From assembly GCA_035537775.1 (NCBI GenBank), contig DATLLQ010000053.1:19521-83520 (forward strand): 64,000 bases of DNA, written 5' to 3'. The notes under the pieces are model-generated. The model did not search any database. It had not been told where the DNA came from and saw only the letters and a program-made list of their open reading frames with translations. Below are positions 19,211-59,930 of the stretch, one piece after another; position 1 is the stretch's first letter; each line of letters opens with the position of its first letter. The DNA comes from Vicinamibacterales bacterium. Lineage in GTDB: Bacteria > Acidobacteriota > Vicinamibacteria > Vicinamibacterales > UBA2999. The position numbers and the translations under genes were made by a program.

Positions 19211-21340
19211 CTACTGAGGGGTCACCAGGATCTGGATGTCGCGTGAGGCCGACGGCCGGTCGCCGAAGTCGCCTCGCGCTTCCACGCGGATGACATATCC
19301 GCCAGGAGTGAGATCGGCCAGCGGCATTCGGGCGCTGAACTTGTGGACGGCGGAGCGGGCGGACGGTTCGACCGACGATCCTCGCCCCATCGTCGTGCGC
19401 TGGATAACGCCAGCTGCGTTGCGGAGCGTCGTCGTAATCGACACCTCGTGGGCCGCGGTGGTTCGCGCGTTGTCGTAGACCTCCCCGAACACCATCAGCT
19501 GATCACTCCGGGAAAAGCTGCGCGTGGCCGCCGGCGGGCCATTCGGAAACTCCGTCGCCTGAGTCCCGAGCGCCATCGTGGGCGTCTTCAATGAATCCTC
19601 GGAGCTCAGCACGAGTCCGCTCAACGCCAGCGGCGCCGTCGAGTAATCCGGCACCTCGAGGTCATAGACAGTGCTGCCGGCCTTGCTGTTCGTTCCTGCC
19701 GCGACGCGCAACTGGTAACGCCCTGGCGGAAGCTCAGTCTGTCCGACGATGCGCGCGCCGCGCGACTTCACCGTTTCGTACAACCCGGGCTGCAGCGCGA
19801 ACGACTTCTTCGAATGATCGCCCGGCCGCGGTCTCCCGCCGGCCGGAACGATGACCGTCGCCATCTCGAGCGTCTCGACCCAGCGGCCGTTCTTGTTTTC
19901 GAAGTTGAACGCCGACGGATCGAGCTCGATGGCGAACGTCACGGTCGACAGATTCATCGACCCCTTGAAGGGCGCCGCGAACACCCGCATCGGGATGCCG
20001 CTGACCGGCAGCGGGCTGCCGAGTGCGTCGAGTGCCGGCGAAGCCGCCGTGTCGCCTGCTGCCGTCGATGCGGGCGTGCTGGAACCGAGAGCCTTATAGC
20101 CGTTCCGCGCGCGCACGGTGAGGCCGGGGCGCTTGACGCGCACCTCCAGCTTGCGCAGCTTTCCGTCCCGCTGGTCGTTCGTCGGCTGGTAACCGATCAG
20201 GTAATACGCGCTGTTTTCGCGGACGATGCGATCGAACGGGCGCAGGAAATTGTTGGTGTTGAGGGCCGCAAACCCACCTGTGTCCTGAGCGAGGGCCTTG
20301 AGGCTGTCCTGCTGAATCCGCACTTCCGCCTGGAGCGTCGACCCATTGGCTTCGGCTGGGGGCGGCTTCCGCCCAAGATTGGGTGGCAACCCCTGCGACA
20401 CCGGCGCAAACCCTGGCGAGTCGCGGTGGACCTGAGTTGCCGACTGCACCATCTCGTCGGCGGGATCGAACAGGCCACGCGGATCGACGCTGTAGATCGT
20501 CACGTTGCCGCGCTGTGCTGACGCGATGGCGGTGCGGGTCTCCTCGCGTACCACGTCCGCAGTCGAACCCTCGGTGCCGATCGCCTGATCGATGTCGTAG
20601 TCGATGCCCTCCCCGAACAGGACCATCGCCTTGCGACGCCCACGGATGCCGGCCATGAACTCCGAGAGTTGACGGATCGAGCCCATCACCGACCGTGCCC
20701 GGTACGCGCGCACGTCCTTGACATTGTCTTCGCCGAGTTCCAGCCCGTCGCCAGCCCCTGGACGGGCGGGGCGGATGCCTTCGAGGGCGACCAATGTCGC
20801 CGATCGAAGCTTCTCGCCGACGAACTTGTCCACCGCCTTCAACAACAGCTGACGGTTGCCGGTGAAGTCCTGGTTCATATCGTTGTGGCCGGTGTAGACG
20901 ACAGCGGCCACATCGTTGGGACCAACGGCGCGTTCGATGAACTGGCGCGCGATCTCCCTGACGCGCGCGGTGCGGTCAAAGCCCGTATGCAGGTCGTCCA
21001 GGACTATCAGATAGATGCCGCCCTCGATCGGAGTGTTGGTCTGGACGTCCGGCACGATTGCCGTCGAGCCGGCGGCGACGGGCAGCGACGGCACCGCACG
21101 CTGAACCGGCAACTCCACGCGCGTGAAGGAGGCAATCTCCTGTCGCTTGCCGTCCTCGAGCACTTCGAAGTCCGCGGCGGTCAGATCGGACACCGCGTTG
21201 CCACGGGCATCGGTGACTGTGGCATCGACCTCGACGAAGTCCACCGCGGCGCGGAAGACGACCGGTGCGGTTGGAGACTGCTGCGCAGATAGTCCAACGA
21301 CTACGAGGGCGACCCCCAAAGCCAGCAAGGCTGGACGCAT
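19211..21340 (-). CDS. VWA domain protein with a VWFA-related acidobacterial N-terminal domain
   Basis: A signal peptide is followed by VFRAAVDFVEVDATVTDARGNAVSDLTAADFEVLEDGKRQEIASF and then a VWA-like region (IYLIVLDDLH). Confidence 0.85.
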   Translation of the reverse strand: MRPALLALGVALVVVGLSAQQSPTAPVVFRAAVDFVEVDATVTDARGNAVSDLTAADFEVLEDGKRQEIASFTRVELPVQRAVPSLPVAAGSTAIVPDVQTNTPIEGGIYLIVLDDLHTGFDRTARVREIARQFIERAVGPNDVAAVVYTGHNDMNQDFTGNRQLLLKAVDKFVGEKLRSATLVALEGIRPARPGAGDGLELGEDNVKDVRAYRARSVMGSIRQLSEFMAGIRGRRKAMVLFGEGIDYDIDQAIGTEGSTADVVREETRTAIASAQRGNVTIYSVDPRGLFDPADEMVQSATQVHRDSPGFAPVSQGLPPNLGRKPPPAEANGSTLQAEVRIQQDSLKALAQDTGGFAALNTNNFLRPFDRIVRENSAYYLIGYQPTNDQRDGKLRKLEVRVKRPGLTVRARNGYKALGSSTPASTAAGDTAASPALDALGSPLPVSGIPMRVFAAPFKGSMNLSTVTFAIELDPSAFNFENKNGRWVETLEMATVIVPAGGRPRPGDHSKKSFALQPGLYETVKSRGARIVGQTELPPGRYQLRVAAGTNSKAGSTVYDLEVPDYSTAPLALSGLVLSSEDSLKTPTMALGTQATEFPNGPPAATRSFSRSDQLMVFGEVYDNARTTAAHEVSITTTLRNAAGVIQRTTMGRGSSVEPSARSAVHKFSARMPLADLTPGGYVIRVEARGDFGDRPSASRDIQILVTPQ

Positions 21341-40952: not shown

Positions 40953-41029
40953 TGGTGCGCCCAGCACGACTCGAACGTGCGACCTCCTGGTTCGTAGCCA
41001 GACGCTCTATCCAACTGAGCTATGGGCGC
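40953..41029 (-). tRNA. tRNA-Arg (anticodon ACG), CCA encoded
   Basis: The reverse complement folds by hand as a cloverleaf: GCGCCCA-TA-GCTC-AGTTGGATA-GAGC-G-TCTGG-CTACGAA-CCAGG-AGGTC-GCACG-TTCGAGT-CGTGC-TGGGCGC-A-CCA. Confidence 0.95.
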
Positions 41030-46992: not shown

Positions 46993-48048
46993 CTACCTGA
47001 ACCGCTGCTGCATGCGCTGGAGCTCGTCATTCCCCGGGCACAGCTGCTCGTAGGGCAGGTCGACGAGGGCGGAAGGCACCGTGCCGCTCTGGCTGTGCAT
47101 GTCCGCCGAATCTTCGGAGAGATACAGCAGGCCGGTCACGATGTCGCCGTCCTTCTGCCGCTCGCGGATGTAGGAATACGCGACGTCGCGGTCACTCGGG
47201 TCGTAGTCCTCGGCCACCTTGCGCAAACGCACCCAGCTCCCGTCGTGCATCATCACGTTGCGCACGCTGCCGGCGTCATAGCTGGTGGTGATCGCCGCGG
47301 CCGGCGGGATGAAATCGGCCTGGACGATCTCCACGTCGTGCTCGCGCGTATAGGCGTAGCTCTTGGTCGAGCCCTCGTGGTCGTTGAACGTCACGCACGG
47401 AGAGATGACGTCCACGAACGCGAAGCCGCTGTGCGAGAGGCCAGCCTTCAGGATCGGGACGAGCTGCGCCTTGTCGCCGGAGAAGCTGCGGGCGACGAAG
47501 CTGGCGCCGAGCGTGAGCGCCAGCAGGCACCCGTCGATCGACTCCATCGTGTTGGCCTCGCCCTTCTTGCTCAGCGAGCCCCGGTCCGCCGATGCGGAGA
47601 ACTGCCCTTTCGTCAGACCGTAGACGCCGTTGTTTTCGAGCACGTACAGCAGGTTCACGTTGCGGCGGATGGCGTGCGAAAGCTGGCCGAGCCCGATCGA
47701 GAGCGAGTCACCGTCGCCGGAGACGCCGATGTAGATCAGCTCGCCGTTCGCAGCGTTGGCGCCGGTGACCAGCGCCGGCATGCGTCCGTGCACGCCGTTG
47801 AAGCCATGCGCCTCCTTCAGGAAGTAGGCGGGCGTCTTCGACGAGCAGCCGATGCCGGAGAGCTTGGCGACCCGGTGCGGCGGAATCGAGAGCTCCCAGA
47901 ACGCCTGAACGATGGCCGCGGTGATCGAGTCGTGTCCGCACCCGGCGCAGAGCGTGGTCATCGACCCTTCGTAGTCGCGGCGGGTCAGGCCGATCTCGTT
48001 GCGCTGGAGACCAGGGTGGGCGACGACGGGCTTCGGGATGTAGGTCAT
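46993..48048 (-). CDS. korB: 2-oxoacid:ferredoxin oxidoreductase beta subunit (TPP-binding)
   Basis: The motifs TLCAGCGHDSI and GVSGDGDSLSIG (TPP GDG motif) are present, at the size and in the gene order expected for KorAB. Confidence 0.9.
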   Translation of the reverse strand: MTYIPKPVVAHPGLQRNEIGLTRRDYEGSMTTLCAGCGHDSITAAIVQAFWELSIPPHRVAKLSGIGCSSKTPAYFLKEAHGFNGVHGRMPALVTGANAANGELIYIGVSGDGDSLSIGLGQLSHAIRRNVNLLYVLENNGVYGLTKGQFSASADRGSLSKKGEANTMESIDGCLLALTLGASFVARSFSGDKAQLVPILKAGLSHSGFAFVDVISPCVTFNDHEGSTKSYAYTREHDVEIVQADFIPPAAAITTSYDAGSVRNVMMHDGSWVRLRKVAEDYDPSDRDVAYSYIRERQKDGDIVTGLLYLSEDSADMHSQSGTVPSALVDLPYEQLCPGNDELQRMQQRFR

Positions 48049-48056
48049 ATATATGC

Positions 48057-48081
48057 GGCACCCCTAAAGGGGTGCCCTACG
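48057..48081 (+). repeat. REP-type element GGCACCCC-TAAA-GGGGTGCC-CTACG
   Basis: Read directly in the korA/korB spacer. It is followed by a partial unit, AGGGCGCCCTACG, at 48085-48097. Confidence 0.8.
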
Positions 48082-48092
48082 TAAAGGGCGCC

Positions 48093-49889
48093 CTACGCTG
48101 CTTTATCCAGTCTGGCCTTGACGCCTGAAATCACGTGCTGCGCGCTCATCGGGAAGCCGCCGTAGTACCGCACCGACTCCATCTTGTCGATCGACAGGCC
48201 CGTCTCGAGCTGGAGCAGACTGCGCAGCTGCGCGTCGCGGTTCTGCTCGACGACGAACGTGAGGTCGTGCGATTCGATGAACTTCGCCACGTCGTCCCCG
48301 AAGGGGAAGCTGCGGACGCGCATGTAGTCGAGCGCGATGCCTTCTTTCGCCAGCAGGTCCAGCGCCTCGATGCACGCGGCATGGCAGCCGCCGACGGTCA
48401 ATATGGCCAGCTTCGTGCCCGGAGTCTGGCGGATGATCGGCGCCGGCAGCGATTTCGTGGCGCGCTGAATCTTCCGGTCGATGCGGTCGACGACCTCGAG
48501 GTATTCCTCGGCGTCCTCCGTATAGCCGCCGTACTTGTTGTGGCCGGAGCCTCTCGTGAAGAACGCGCCCCTCGGGTGCGTGCCGGGCAGCGTGCGATAC
48601 GGGATCCCGTCGCCGTCCACGTCGAGGTAGCGATAGAAGTTCTTCGCCTTCTCGAGCTGCTCCGCTGTGAGCACCTTGCCGCGATCGGGCTTGCGGCTGT
48701 CGTCCCACACCAGCTTCGGCACCATCCAGTCGTTCATCCCGATGTCGAGATCGGTCAGCACGAACACCGGCGTCTGGAACCGCTCGGCATAGTCGAATGC
48801 CTTCGAGGCCAGCTCGAACGCCTCTCGCGGATCCGACGGATAGAGACAGATGTGCCGCGTGTCGCCGTGCGACGCATAGGCGGCCATCATTAGGTCGCCC
48901 TGCTGCGTGCGGGTCGGCATGCCGGTTGACGGTCCGGTGCGCTGCACGTCGAAAATCACCGCCGGGACTTCGCCGTAGTAGGCAAGGCCGATGAACTCGT
49001 TCATCAGCGAGATGCCGGGACCCGAGGTGGATGTGAAGGCGCGGGCGCCGGCCCAGCCGGCGCCGATCACCATGCCGACGGCGGCGAGCTCGTCTTCCGC
49101 CTGGAGGATCGCGAAGCGATTCTTCTTGGTCTCGGGATCCTGGCGGTACTTCATGCAGAAGCCGCGGAAGGCGTCCATCAACGAGGTCGACGGCGTGATC
49201 GGATACCAGGCGGCAACGGTCGCGCCGGCGTAGAGACAGCCGAGCGCTGCCGACGTATTGCCGTCGATGAGGATCGCGTCCTTGGTCTTGTCGAGCGGCT
49301 CGAGGTGGATCGGCAGCGGGCAGGACAGGTTCTTCAGCGCGTACTGATACCCGAGGTCCACCGCCTTCTGGTTGGAGTCCATCAGCGCCTGCTTCTTGCC
49401 GAACTTCTCCTTCAGCAGCGCGCGGATGACGTCCTGGTCGATCTTCATCAGCGCCGCGAGCGCGCCGACATACGCGATGTTCTTCATGAGGATGCGCTCG
49501 CGCACGCCCTTGAAGCTCGCGTTGCACATCTCCGCCAGCGGCACGCCCAGGTAGGTGACGTCCGGCCGCTTCAGGCGATCGTCGAGTGGCCACGACGAGT
49601 CATACAGCAGCCATCCGCCGCCTCGCACCTCGGCCACGTCCTTGTCGTAGGTCGCGGCGTTCAGCGCCACCATCAGATCGAAGTCCGGCGTGCGGGCGGT
49701 GTAGCCGTCCTTGTTGACCCGGATCTCGTACCAGGTGGGCAGCCCCTGGATGTTCGACGGGAAGACGTTCTTGCCAGTGACCGGCACACCCATCCGGAAG
49801 ATGGCCTGCATCAGGAGACTGTTGGCCGATGCGGACCCGGTTCCGTTGGCAGTGGCGATCTTGAAGGCGAAGTCGTTAACTCGGCTCAT
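48093..49889 (-). CDS. korA: 2-oxoacid:ferredoxin oxidoreductase alpha subunit
   Basis: A 598-aa protein with the N-terminus FKIATANGTGSASANSLLMQAIF and the domain order typical of KorA. Confidence 0.9.
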   Translation of the reverse strand: MSRVNDFAFKIATANGTGSASANSLLMQAIFRMGVPVTGKNVFPSNIQGLPTWYEIRVNKDGYTARTPDFDLMVALNAATYDKDVAEVRGGGWLLYDSSWPLDDRLKRPDVTYLGVPLAEMCNASFKGVRERILMKNIAYVGALAALMKIDQDVIRALLKEKFGKKQALMDSNQKAVDLGYQYALKNLSCPLPIHLEPLDKTKDAILIDGNTSAALGCLYAGATVAAWYPITPSTSLMDAFRGFCMKYRQDPETKKNRFAILQAEDELAAVGMVIGAGWAGARAFTSTSGPGISLMNEFIGLAYYGEVPAVIFDVQRTGPSTGMPTRTQQGDLMMAAYASHGDTRHICLYPSDPREAFELASKAFDYAERFQTPVFVLTDLDIGMNDWMVPKLVWDDSRKPDRGKVLTAEQLEKAKNFYRYLDVDGDGIPYRTLPGTHPRGAFFTRGSGHNKYGGYTEDAEEYLEVVDRIDRKIQRATKSLPAPIIRQTPGTKLAILTVGGCHAACIEALDLLAKEGIALDYMRVRSFPFGDDVAKFIESHDLTFVVEQNRDAQLRSLLQLETGLSIDKMESVRYYGGFPMSAQHVISGVKARLDKAA

Positions 49890-51905: not shown

Positions 51906-51929
51906 GTCCGGCTAAAGCCGGACGCTACG
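51906..51929 (+). repeat. REP-type element GTCCGGC-TAAA-GCCGGAC-GCTACG
   Basis: Read directly, 9 nt after the sodA stop. Confidence 0.8.
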
Positions 51930-53603: not shown

Positions 53604-53628
53604 GGTCCGGCTGAAGCCGGACGCTACG
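53604..53628 (+). repeat. REP-type element GGTCCGGC-TGAA-GCCGGAC-GCTACG overlapping the nadA stop codon
   Basis: Read directly. The CTA of the tail (53624-53626) is the reverse complement of the nadA TAG stop. Confidence 0.8.
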
Positions 53629-56831: not shown

Positions 56832-56980
56832 GTGAAAAAGAAACCGGGTTTGATTTTCCAGCCCAAACAGGGACAATCAAACCCGGCTTCAATTGTAGCC
56901 GGGTGAACAGGGAAGTGGGTGCGAAGCCCACGCGGTCCCGCCACTGTAAGCGGAGAGATTCGGTCGCACGTCACTGCGGT

Positions 56981-57005
56981 GGCACTCCTGAAGGGGTGCT
57001 CTACG
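56981..57005 (+). repeat. REP-type element GGCACTCC-TGAA-GGGGTGCT-CTACG
   Basis: Read directly. It lies inside the riboswitch variable region. Confidence 0.75.
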
Positions 57006-57011
57006 AGATTT

Positions 57012-57036
57012 CGTAGGACGCGCCTTCAGGCGCGTC
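57012..57036 (-). repeat. REP-type element, inverted: CGTAG-GACGCGCC-TTCA-GGCGCGTC
   Basis: Read directly. With the element at 56981-57005 it forms a tail-to-tail doublet around the palindrome CTACGAgattTCGTAG. Confidence 0.75.
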
Positions 57037-57133
57037 ACGCGGGAAGACAACCCGAATCGGCAAAGACTCCGTGAGCCAGGAGACCTCTCATCCGGCGTCG
57101 TCCAGCTCTCGGCGCGAAGGACGCCGCACGGAC

Positions 57134-57979
57134 ATGACGCTCTCCGCCACACAGCTCTCGTACAGCTATCGCCAGGGTCCGGCTAAAGCCGGACGCTACG
57201 CCAGAAAAACAGGTCCGGCTGAAGCCGGACATTACGCCGGGGACTTCGCGCTGCGCGACATCAGCGTCAGCGTCGCGCCCGGTTCGCTGACAGGCCTCCT
57301 CGGGCCGAACGGCTGCGGCAAGACGACGCTGCTGAAGCTGCTCTCCGGCGTCCTCAAGCCGGAGCTCGGCTCCGTTCGACTTGGCGAACGCGAGATGCGC
57401 CTGCTCTCCGCGCGGGCCGTCGCACAGCAGATCGCGGTGGTCCCCCAGGAAACGCATCCGGCGTTCGACTTCACGGTCATGGAGATGGTGCTGATGGGAC
57501 GCCATCCGCATCTCGGCGCGTTTCAGCTCGAGGGACCCAGTGATCTTGCGATCGCCCGCGAGTCGCTGATCGCTACGGGCACCGCCCACCTTGCGGGCCG
57601 CGCCTACATGACGCTGAGCGGCGGCGAAAAGCAGCGCGTCGTCATTGCCAGCGCGCTGGCGCAGAAGCCAAAGGTTCTCCTGCTCGACGAGCCGACCGCC
57701 TCGCTCGACCTCGGCTATCAGCTCGAAATCGCAGCGCTCCTCAAACAGCTCAATCGGGAACGCGGTGTGACGATGGTGCTGGCGACGCATGATCTGAACC
57801 TGGCGGCGTCCGTGTGCGACACGCTCGTGCTCGTGCGCGAAGGCCGGGTGCTGATGCAGGGGCCGACGAACGATGTCCTGACGTCCGCCACCGTCCAGCA
57901 GCTCTACGGCGTGATCGCCGACGTCACATTCCACGAGCGCGCGGGACACATGACGGTCATCCCCGTCCGCCGGCAATGA
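57134..57979 (+). CDS. btuD: Corrinoid/iron-complex ABC transporter ATP-binding protein (BtuD/FecE family)
   Basis: From ORF 57071..57979, with the start moved to MTLSATQLSYSY (ATG 57134), because the GTG at 57071 lies inside the B12 box. The motifs GPNGCGKTTLLK and LSGGEKQRV...LLLDEPTASLD are present. Confidence 0.85.
   Translation: MTLSATQLSYSYRQGPAKAGRYARKTGPAEAGHYAGDFALRDISVSVAPGSLTGLLGPNGCGKTTLLKLLSGVLKPELGSVRLGEREMRLLSARAVAQQIAVVPQETHPAFDFTVMEMVLMGRHPHLGAFQLEGPSDLAIARESLIATGTAHLAGRAYMTLSGGEKQRVVIASALAQKPKVLLLDEPTASLDLGYQLEIAALLKQLNRERGVTMVLATHDLNLAASVCDTLVLVREGRVLMQGPTNDVLTSATVQQLYGVIADVTFHERAGHMTVIPVRRQ
57176..57200 (+). repeat. REP-type element GGTCCGGC-TAAA-GCCGGAC-GCTACG inside btuD codons 15-23
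   Basis: Read directly. It translates in frame as GPAKAGRYA. Confidence 0.8.
57212..57236 (+). repeat. REP-type element GGTCCGGC-TGAA-GCCGGAC-ATTACG inside btuD codons 27-35
   Basis: Read directly. It translates in frame as GPAEAGHYA. Confidence 0.8.
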
Positions 57980-59040: not shown

Positions 59041-59930
59041 TCGCGGCTATCGCGGTTCTGATCGCGTGTGCGATCAGCGTGAGCGCTCTCCAGGTCCGCC
59101 TGAAGGCGGACACTACGACCGCGCAACGTGGGGTCGGCGCGAATGCCCGCATCGTGTCGCTCGTGCCGGCGCTCACCGAGATGTTCTTCGCCATCGGTGC
59201 TGGTCCGCAGGTTGTCGGCATCGGCAACTTCGATAACTTCCCTCCAGAGGTCAAGACGCTGCCGCGCGTCGGAGCGCTGCTCAACCCCGACACGGAGCGC
59301 ATCCTCGCTCTTCGTCCGACTCTGGTCGCCACCTACGGCTCGCAGACCGATCTCAACGAGCAGTTCGCGCGCGCTGGCATCAAGACGTTCGTGTACCGGC
59401 ACGGCGGCATCAGCACCATCTTCCAGACGATGCGCGATCTTGGCGATGCGACGGGTCATCGGGCGCAGGCCGATCGAGTGGTGCGCGACCTTCAGGCACG
59501 TCTCGACGCTGTGCGCACCAGAGTGAAGGGACTGCAGAAGCCGCGCGTCCTGCTCGTCATCGGACGCCAGCCGAAGGCGCTGCGCGAGATCTACGTGAGC
59601 GGCGGCCAGGGATTCCTGCACGAGATGCTCGAGATCGCCGGGGGCCAGAACGTCTTTGCCGATGTATTGCGTGAGTCGGTCCAGCCGTCGCAGGAGACTC
59701 TCATTGCCCGCAAACCGGACATCGTGATCGAAACGCACGCGGAGGGGATGTTCCAGACCTCCGACGTCAGCGGCGAGCAGGCGGTCTGGTCGGCTTTGTC
59801 CTCGCTGCCCGCGGTCCGCAATCGCCGGGTCCACGTCTTGATCGGCCAGTACCTTGTCGTGCCCGGGCCTCGGTTCGCGCAGGCGACCGAAACCCTCGCG
59901 CGAACCATTCACCCCGAAGCGTTCAAGTGA
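59016..59930 (+). CDS. btuF: Periplasmic corrinoid/siderophore-binding protein (BtuF-like), probable lipoprotein
   Basis: From ORF 58929..59930, with the start moved to MAARTKKLIAAIAVLIACA (ATG 59016). The motifs RIVSLVPALTEMFFAIG and NPDTERILALRPTLV are present. Confidence 0.85.
   Translation: MAARTKKLIAAIAVLIACAISVSALQVRLKADTTTAQRGVGANARIVSLVPALTEMFFAIGAGPQVVGIGNFDNFPPEVKTLPRVGALLNPDTERILALRPTLVATYGSQTDLNEQFARAGIKTFVYRHGGISTIFQTMRDLGDATGHRAQADRVVRDLQARLDAVRTRVKGLQKPRVLLVIGRQPKALREIYVSGGQGFLHEMLEIAGGQNVFADVLRESVQPSQETLIARKPDIVIETHAEGMFQTSDVSGEQAVWSALSSLPAVRNRRVHVLIGQYLVVPGPRFAQATETLARTIHPEAFK
59093..59117 (+). repeat. REP-type element GGTCCGCC-TGAA-GGCGGAC-ACTACG inside btuF
   Basis: Read directly. 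It translates in frame as (Q)VRLKADTT, just after the signal peptide/lipobox. Confidence 0.8.

Follow-up and report, generated by a model that had tools for sequence, protein, structure and literature searches.

The 64,000-nt window examined here, from a bacterium of the Vicinamibacterales (Acidobacteriota), carries a cobalamin riboswitch in which the loop of one peripheral hairpin, P11, is filled by two repetitive extragenic palindromes (REPs). We think it quite probable that this is a working cobalamin riboswitch of the long form, that its P11 loop was colonized by a tail-tail REP dimer of the GTAG type which persists as a tolerated passenger, and that REPs have repeatedly landed in this loop or been exchanged there. 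According to this reading, the riboswitch would control the operon of a B12-type ATP-binding cassette (ABC) importer, most likely at translation. The REP dimer (56979-57037) would have settled in the loop that ends P11, at the outermost point of the P6 extension, where it would pair with itself and lengthen P11 away from the ligand-binding core, so that the aptamer would fold and be selected as before while the insert rides along. In this scheme we infer ligand binding, regulation, a kissing loop between L5 and L13, and transposase-mediated mobility.

A search with cmscan placed a match to the Rfam cobalamin riboswitch model, RF00174, at 56864-57106 on the + strand with a score of 83.4 bits (E value 4.5e-19). 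The match spans the whole model (positions 1-189) and exceeds the gathering score of 31.5 bits. The conserved core motifs and the B12 box are present, and the element lies 5' of cobalamin transport genes, with ABC_tran, FecCD and two Peripla_BP_2 domains encoded directly 3'. All parts of the aptamer, a long form with a P6 extension, lie on the + strand. The 5' strand of P1 (GCCGGGUGA, 56898-56906) forms nine complementary pairs with the 3' strand UCAUCCGGC at 57088-57096, which is supported by covariation. Sequence and Rfam alignment place P3 to P5, L5 and the start of P6 in the core block GGGAAGTGGGTGCGAAGCCCACGCGGTCCCGCCACTGTAA at 56910-56949. GTCACTG follows at 56970-56976, and the loop that holds the insert is closed by the P11 5' strand CUGCG (56974-56978, from the Rfam structure line) and the 3' strand CGCGG, the latter followed by GGGAAGAC (57041-57048, taken as J11/10), so that strand and junction together occupy 57038-57048 in the Rfam alignment. 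The B12 box, AGCCAGGAGACCT, is found at 57074-57086, where sequence and Rfam alignment give the RF00174 core motif as AGCCAGGAGACCU. A metagenome contig, L161, has a sequence identical to the window riboswitch, including its L11.

Class I (Cbl-I) riboswitches have a P6 extension made up of P7-P11 that folds back, so that conserved adenosines of J11/10 contact the ligand pocket (Chan et al., PMC7367189). The window RNA has both the long P6 extension, with model positions 84-160 matched, and the J11/10 adenosines; the match to the extension takes in GUCACUG and CGGGAAGAC in the Rfam alignment, and GGGAAGAC is invariant across the orthologue alignment. Judged by its sequence, then, the RNA is an ordinary RF00174 member with a class I type of P6 extension.

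The sole large insertion relative to RF00174 consists of 57 nt where the model has 6, between GUCACUGCGG and ACGCGGGAAGAC, and it falls in the hairpin loop between GCCACUG and CGGGAAG. On the basis of the published description of the P6 extension (PMC7367189), this loop is L11; it caps P11 where the extension ends, just past the GCCACUG / GGGAAG internal loop. The Rfam insertion state, together with the GCAA tetraloop found at this site in the orthologous leader L081, delimits the insert to 56979-57037. Unit 1, GCACTCC-TGAA-GGGGTGC-T-CTACG, was located by pattern scan at 56982-57005 on the + strand and has one T.G pair in its stem; unit 2, ACGCGCC-TGAA-GGCGCGT-C-CTACG, is inverted and was located in the same way at 57012-57035 on the - strand. 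Between the GTAG/CTAC tags lies the 6-nt spacer AGATTT (57006-57011). An earlier note on this DNA, made from the letters alone, had described an intact B12 aptamer core in which the segment between CACUG and GGGAAG, normally a short variable hairpin, is about 70 nt long and consists of two tail-to-tail REP units around the palindrome CTACGAgattTCGTAG (57001-57016). The core motifs that it listed are all present and both units are as it described, with the covariance model setting the insert in a hairpin loop rather than across the core, here and in four orthologues; the distance from CACTG to GGGAAG is, however, 64 nt.

In the GTAG REP superfamily as defined by Di Nocera et al. (2013; PMC3733652), a unit is a GC-rich stem-loop with a stem of 5-13 bp, a small loop and an unpaired GTAG at one end. 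The GTAG end is termed the tail, dimers with the tags inside are tail-tail (TT), and dimers with different stems are heterodimers. Both riboswitch units are short GC-rich palindromes with stems of 7-8 bp and loops of 4 nt, and in both the CTACG/CGTAG lies one base from the stem. The GTAG tags face each other across the 6-nt spacer, which makes the pair a tail-tail dimer, and the stems of units 1 and 2 differ, so that it is a heterodimer and no perfect inverted duplicate; the 28-nt arms 56979-57006 and 57011-57038 are 75% complementary. The riboswitch insert is a GTAG-type tail-tail heterodimer.

The unit pattern used in the scan consisted of a 7-bp stem, a T[GA]AA loop, the complement with at most one mismatch, one base, and [CT]TACG. 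It matched 8 times in the window and never in any of 200 dinucleotide-preserving shuffles. The family was recognized only with such a structure-based pattern; a word search for the window's two units with up to three mismatches recovered a single related copy, at 48057. Copies are dispersed in number over the window and related contigs. Intergenic units on the + strand of the window are GTCCGGC-TAAA-GCCGGAC-G-CTACG at 51906-51929, GTCCGGC-TGAA-GCCGGAC-G-CTACG at 53605-53628, and a composite REP at 48057-48097 (scan unit at 48058) that reads GGCACCCC-TAAA-GGGGTGCC-CTACG followed by a half unit, TAAAGGGCGCC-CTACG. Two further + strand units found by the scan (57177-57200 and 57213-57236) lie in frame in the open reading frame (ORF) of the ATPase downstream of the riboswitch, and one (59094-59117, GTCCGCC-TGAA-GGCGGAC-A-CTACG) lies in frame in a binding-protein ORF, where it codes for VRLKADTT. 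Seven of the 8 units share one orientation regardless of the direction of the surrounding genes. All 8 are confined to the final 16 kb of the window; none lies in the 48 kb before that.

Two cases link riboswitch repeats to unrelated loci. Unit 1 of the window riboswitch matches window positions 48057-48081 at 22 of 25 nt, and the latter stretch, GGCACCCCTAAAGGGGTGCCCTACG, agrees at all 25 nt with unit 1 of the riboswitch in the orthologous contig L171. The half unit TAAAGGGCGCCCTACG comes directly after it, so that the order of unit types (U1 then U2) is also that of the L171 riboswitch insert. The composite REP sits between the minus-strand ORFs 46993-48048 and 48093-49889, presumably TPP_enzyme_C and POR genes, to go by the orthologous contigs; the spacer between these genes is not comparable in orthologues, being 35 nt in L163 and replaced by an overlap of the genes in L170. 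The second link involves a tail-tail pair with GGCCGACC stems that occupies the riboswitch of L175 and is also found inside hscA (HSP70) of L163 at 19882-19941, where it is in frame, codes for GRPEGRPLRAGVEADLQVGL and has an 8-nt spacer; its first 26 nt are the same as the L175 copy.

Could the segment instead be an ordinary lineage-specific elaboration of P11 that resembles REPs by chance? Variable hairpins are common in this loop, the Rfam model itself has a loop here, and no close copy of the window's unit 2 turned up at any other place in the DNA examined. Nevertheless, both units carry the T[GA]AA apex and the CTACG tag, a combination that the shuffles failed to produce, 25- and 26-mers are repeated without change at unrelated loci, the site is empty in L081, and near-identical leaders hold different pairs (see below). 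We consider such a chance resemblance hardly credible. Copies at unrelated loci together with an empty site fit a dispersed mobile repeat and not a native stem, and the repeat is, from its sequence and predicted structure, a new family, in Acidobacteriota, of a kind already known, the GTAG REPs.

Orthologous leaders were collected through the ATPase: scans of genome and metagenome collections gave 4 and about 9 true relatives, respectively, amid noise from Walker A matches, and further, closer orthologues were added singly to the leader comparison. Rfam finds the riboswitch in all orthologous leaders examined, with lengths of 114-246 nt. The L11 of L081 is empty (CUGCG-GCAA-CGCGG), and this leader has the best Rfam score, 89.6 bits, versus 70-83 bits for the insert-bearing leaders. 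L087 and L003 have short loops, and the distance from CACTG to GGGAAG is 9-19 nt in these two and in L081; L082 and L004 have plain hairpins. The L11 loop holds an insert of 53-81 nt in four orthologues, namely L172 (57 nt), L174 (58 nt), L175 (81 nt) and L084 (53 nt). That of L172 is the window's pair with two substitutions, while L174 has GGCGCCC followed by an inverted GGCACGCC, L175 has the pair with GGCCGACC stems, and L084 has GTCGAGTC and an inverted GGCGGGTT whose tags overlap. L171 contains three units, GGCACCCC, a degenerate GCCCC/GGGCGCC and an inverted ACACGCT, and the contig of L162 begins within the insert, its 3' unit being of the L175 type (GGCCGAC stem).

Recognizable units are common to the inserts of the window, L171 and L174, and in the units orthologous to unit 2 of the window (ACACGCT in L171, GCACGCC in L174) the stem differences are compensated. 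From the order and sequence of their units, these three inserts seem to descend from a single old insertion with three or more units, from which different units were later lost. Neither the L175/L162 pair nor that of L084 is related to it. The clearest evidence of turnover comes from L162 (1-146) and L172 (1-255), which are identical from GGGAAGAC to the ATG except at 1 of 97 nt, yet carry unrelated REP pairs and different inner P11 base pairs. A near-identical flank with different pairs implies a recent exchange of P11 and its REPs as a cassette, and the alignment indicates that the 3' boundary of the swap lay at the conserved GGGAAGAC. As far as these leaders can tell, the P11 loop is a recurrent REP landing or exchange site in Vicinamibacterales.

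Some relatives have gone further. P7-P11 is wholly missing in L170 (9860-9973), L163 (9845-9973), L164 (983-1134) and L173 (395-606), whose aptamers are 114-152 nt long and whose ATPase cores are 92-95% identical to that of the window; three of these leaders have the B12 box GGAAACC instead of GGAGACC. The ATPase tree scatters the forms lacking P7-P11 among long ones, a pattern suggesting that the peripheral domain was lost or exchanged more than once, and the loss may perhaps mean a change of riboswitch class.

The minimum free energy (MFE) structure of the aptamer outside the insert was identical whether the insert was kept or replaced by GCAA. The predicted helix probabilities with the insert and with GCAA, respectively, were 0.97 and 0.97 for P2, 0.89 and 0.89 for P4, 0.46 and 0.47 for P6, 0.95 and 0.97 for P7-8, and 0.88 and 0.99 for P11. 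The insert alone is predicted to form either a single long hairpin of -43.7 kcal/mol, coaxial with P11, or three local hairpins of -40.9 kcal/mol, and both folds leave P11 closed. Covariation bears out the helices at the base and at the insertion site. P1 (56898-56906 / 57088-57096) covaries across 11 orthologues, and in P11 changes on one strand are compensated on the other, both in orthologues that have an insert and in those that have none (CUGAG/CUCGG, CUAGGC/GCCUGG, CUGUGUC/GACAUGG). We also compared the conservation of the aptamer core with that of fourfold degenerate sites in the ATPase gene, between the window and four insert-bearing orthologues. Fourfold identity was 74% for L172, 55% for L174, 55% for L171 and 50% for L175, while the aptamer core was 96-99%, 84-87%, 84-90% and 91-97% identical, respectively.

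The leaders also retain a candidate expression platform. A hairpin at 57110-57126 (+), CGGCG-CGAAGGA-CGCCG, which its conservation marks as a candidate P13/L13, has a Shine-Dalgarno-like AAGGA in its loop, 8 nt 5' of the ATG, and is nearly invariant in the compared leaders, with an insert or with none. The loop sequence AAGGAC is complementary over 4-5 nt to GGUCCC of L5. In other cobalamin riboswitches L5 pairs with L13 of the expression platform (PMC7367189), and by analogy we infer translational control through pairing of L5 with the AAGGAC loop. A scan for terminator-like sites on the + strand found none. The insert was considered as a transcription terminator and rejected, given that no T run follows it and no such site was present on that strand.

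The earlier note had left two possibilities, a tolerant loop colonized by a mobile palindrome or a riboswitch disabled by it. The latter would make the element a decaying relic and the operon constitutive. In class I structures the J11/10 adenosines beside P11 contact the ligand pocket (PMC7367189), so that a bulky neighbor could interfere, and close relatives have deleted P7-P11 altogether. However, the core, P1, P11, the B12 box and the platform are intact and covarying in all insert-bearing lineages despite a fourfold identity of 50-55%, which is near saturation, and the Rfam scores of these lineages stay at 70-83 bits against 89.6 for the empty-site orthologue. The insert-bearing lineages keep intact downstream genes as well. 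Unchanged folding, covariation and the conservation of core, platform and genes favor a tolerated insert over inactivation, and we judge it very unlikely that the riboswitch was disabled. Predicted folding, covariation and core conservation indicate that the riboswitch is most likely still working, and the comparison also bore out the two things expected of a colonized loop, an orthologous leader with an empty site and REP units shared with copies elsewhere (48057-48081 with unit 1 of L171, and the GGCCGACC pair of L175 with hscA of L163).

At the 5' end the Rfam alignment and the covariation disagree. Rfam puts P2 at 56881-56904, as a hairpin ACCCGGCU...AGCCGGGU whose 3' arm overlaps the covarying P1 strand at 56898-56906. 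Since this arm takes up part of GCCGGGUGA in the 9-bp P1, the hairpin and P1 are mutually exclusive. From the alignment, a true P2 arm in the window riboswitch is doubtful; L081 is without P2 according to Rfam. The hairpin may be an alternative structure, or it may be sequence ahead of the transcription start. Just 5' of the aptamer, at 56850-56880, there is an inverted repeat, TTGATTTTCC / GGACAATCAA, that is kept in L173 and L164; it may be a promoter (TTGATT-16-GACAAT) or an operator. A scan with the consensus promoter returned no sigma-70-like promoter.

A further question is whether the insert, having been tolerated, has become useful. The inserts of the window and L172 agree at all but 2 of 64 nt, whereas the ATPase fourfold sites differ by 26%; at the fourfold rate about 17 of 64 changes would be expected (binomial p of about 1e-6 by our own arithmetic). 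This low divergence could reflect selection on the insert or, equally well, a recent cassette exchange, and as exchange between lineages is evident we rejected the figure as clean proof of selection. Co-option would mean that a long, stable P11 extension is selected, for folding or docking of the P6 extension, for protection from RNase or for protein binding, with the insert now a functional part of the RNA. It would account for the presence of at least three unrelated kinds of REP pair in the same loop in at least five lineages, for the low divergence just described, in which one of the changes converts U.G to C-G, and for the compensated stem changes among orthologous units of the window, L171 and L174. 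Against this, L081, L087 and L003 fare well with 9-19 nt, the first with the best Rfam score of all; the predicted helix probabilities are not better with the insert; cassette exchange between lineages can mimic conservation; and maintenance of REP hairpins at the DNA level would also give compensated stems. We regard co-option as improbable. The bolder proposal, that the P11 loop serves REP dimers as a dedicated place of docking or exchange and that the dimer is now a selected module of the RNA, strikes us as similarly unlikely. If it were true, the swapping and loss of REP cassettes would remodel the P6 extension in these bacteria, in the extreme by loss of P7-P11 to leave a short-form riboswitch that perhaps prefers another corrinoid, and a mobile palindrome would drive the structural evolution of a riboswitch class.

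Several observations weigh against the tolerated passenger that we favor. The case for riboswitch function is one of conservation. The loss of P7-P11 in several close relatives may mean that the domain is dispensable in this clade, which weakens the argument that the insert is tolerated because it is neutral to an essential fold. The contrast between 2 of 64 nt in the insert and 26% at fourfold sites fits selection on the insert or recent exchange better than it fits a purely neutral passenger. As to mobility, only one tail-tail pair was found outside riboswitches, that in hscA of L163, the other copies being single or head-to-tail; with so few inverted pairs outside riboswitches, movement of the pair as one unit is not established. 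No gene for a REP-associated tyrosine transposase (RAYT) was found in the window and about 230 kb of related loci by tblastn with E. coli RayT (best E value 0.41). RAYT genes are usually single-copy, so a missing RAYT in sampled DNA is weak evidence.

These points also bear on the description of the insert in the earlier note as an inverted doublet like the REP doublets forming hairpins (REPINs) that are mobilized in other bacteria. The inverted pair is there, and its two REPs fold as one hairpin (75% complementary arms, MFE of -43.7 kcal/mol). For this family its status as the mobilized unit is only a possibility, as most copies are single or head-to-tail. An excess of doublets is the defining property of REPINs (Bertels and Rainey 2011; PMC3116915), and none was seen in about 290 kb of window and related loci, a small sample. 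The REPINs of Pseudomonas are head-head dimers (PMC3733652), with the tags outside, whereas the riboswitch pair is tail-tail. The same doublet does occur at unrelated loci in the case of the GGCCGACC pair (the L175 riboswitch and L163 hscA); the window's own pair was not seen at other loci, and its unit 1 type stands alone at 48057. Inverted pairs may recur in L11 through a selective filter, in which only an insert that pairs with itself lets P11 close.

The first gene 3' of the riboswitch (57134-57979, +) encodes an ABC transporter ATPase (FhuC/BtuD-like by Pfam) with close homologues from Vicinamibacterales (Acidobacteriota). It is followed by genes for a FecCD permease, a periplasmic binding protein, a Diphthami_syn_2 protein and a second binding protein (Pfam). 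These genes are intact and of the B12 or iron-siderophore importer type, and the order of riboswitch and operon genes is retained in related contigs. Upstream lies a divergent radical-SAM gene of the CofH/MqnC type. A tRNA gene is found elsewhere in the window, at 40956-41029 on the - strand (RF00005, 67.2 bits).

The two in-frame REPs of the ATPase code for GPAKAGRY...GPAEAGHY, between strands β1 (LSYSY) and β2 (DFALRDISV), and the alignment of FhuC (7lb8) to the window ATPase begins directly after the REP segment. Orthologues have 0-4 REP units in this turn, read in all three frames (GPAEAGHY, VRLKPDTT, SGRPEGRPL), and from these sequences the β1-β2 turn is a second REP hotspot. Other repeat-like peptides, such as PPSRSALRRTS and SASARSATADK, occur in the ATPase loop of P0007, P0020, P0032, P0037, P0039 and P0075, which hints at a second palindromic repeat family at this hotspot. 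The in-frame REP of the binding protein (59094-59117) lies directly after the predicted signal peptide.

Riboswitch aptamers are usually seen as tightly constrained RNAs and REPs as extragenic, while here REPs lie inside an aptamer. One REP family occupies three settings in a single operon, the aptamer and, in frame, the first and third genes, and the riboswitch offers a natural case of selfish DNA within a regulatory RNA that is seemingly functional. Full-text literature searches returned no report of a REP or REPIN inside a riboswitch aptamer, nor of REPs in Vicinamibacterales. The related genomes supply natural controls: one has an empty site, others carry differing inserts, and some have lost P7-P11 entirely. 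With them one can ask what amount of foreign structure a peripheral loop of a riboswitch will bear, whether a REP dimer travels as one unit, and how cobalamin riboswitches acquire, swap and lose their peripheral domains. For the Acidobacteriota, the window also contributes a REP family of the GTAG type.

The window riboswitch resembles class I riboswitches such as that of Thermoanaerobacter tengcongensis (4GMA, as described in PMC7367189) in its four-way core, B12 box, long P6 extension, GCCACUG / GGGAAG internal loop and terminal P11 hairpin, and in its position 5' of a B12 importer operon. It differs in L11, which is short there and in the window holds a mobile-palindrome pair of 57-59 nt, and in P2, which is doubtful here because the Rfam P2 overlaps the covarying P1 strand. 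The repeat family is like the GTAG REPs (PMC3733652), and like the REP/BIME elements of E. coli, in being a short GC-rich stem-loop with a GTAG tag and many dispersed copies; it also shares with the GTAG REPs the occurrence of single units and dimers, some of them in frame inside genes. It differs in coming from the Acidobacteriota, a phylum unlisted for GTAG repeats in PMC3733652, in having numerous stem variants with nothing but apex and tag in common, and in having one dimer inside a riboswitch aptamer.

The comparison with the REPINs of Pseudomonas fluorescens SBW25 (PMC3116915) is closer in structure than in distribution. In both, inverted REPs make a hairpin in single-stranded nucleic acid, and one pair type of the present family recurs at an unrelated locus. 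The SBW25 spacer is 71 or 110 bp, against 6 nt in the window pair, whose tags are inside (tail-tail) and whose partner stems are unlike; pairs are not dominant in the DNA sampled here, and a RAYT was not found there. Small palindromic repeats within protein genes are known (PMC3733652), and among the palindromic elements of R. bellii 53 lie within protein genes and a single one within the gene for tmRNA (PMC1458961). The Rickettsia elements are thus alike in being small palindromes that occur in frame in genes and in a structured RNA, both of which are seen in the window operon, although they belong to a CGTC-tagged group (PMC3733652), are longer and come from an obligate intracellular alphaproteobacterium, whereas the RNA occupied in the window is a riboswitch aptamer.

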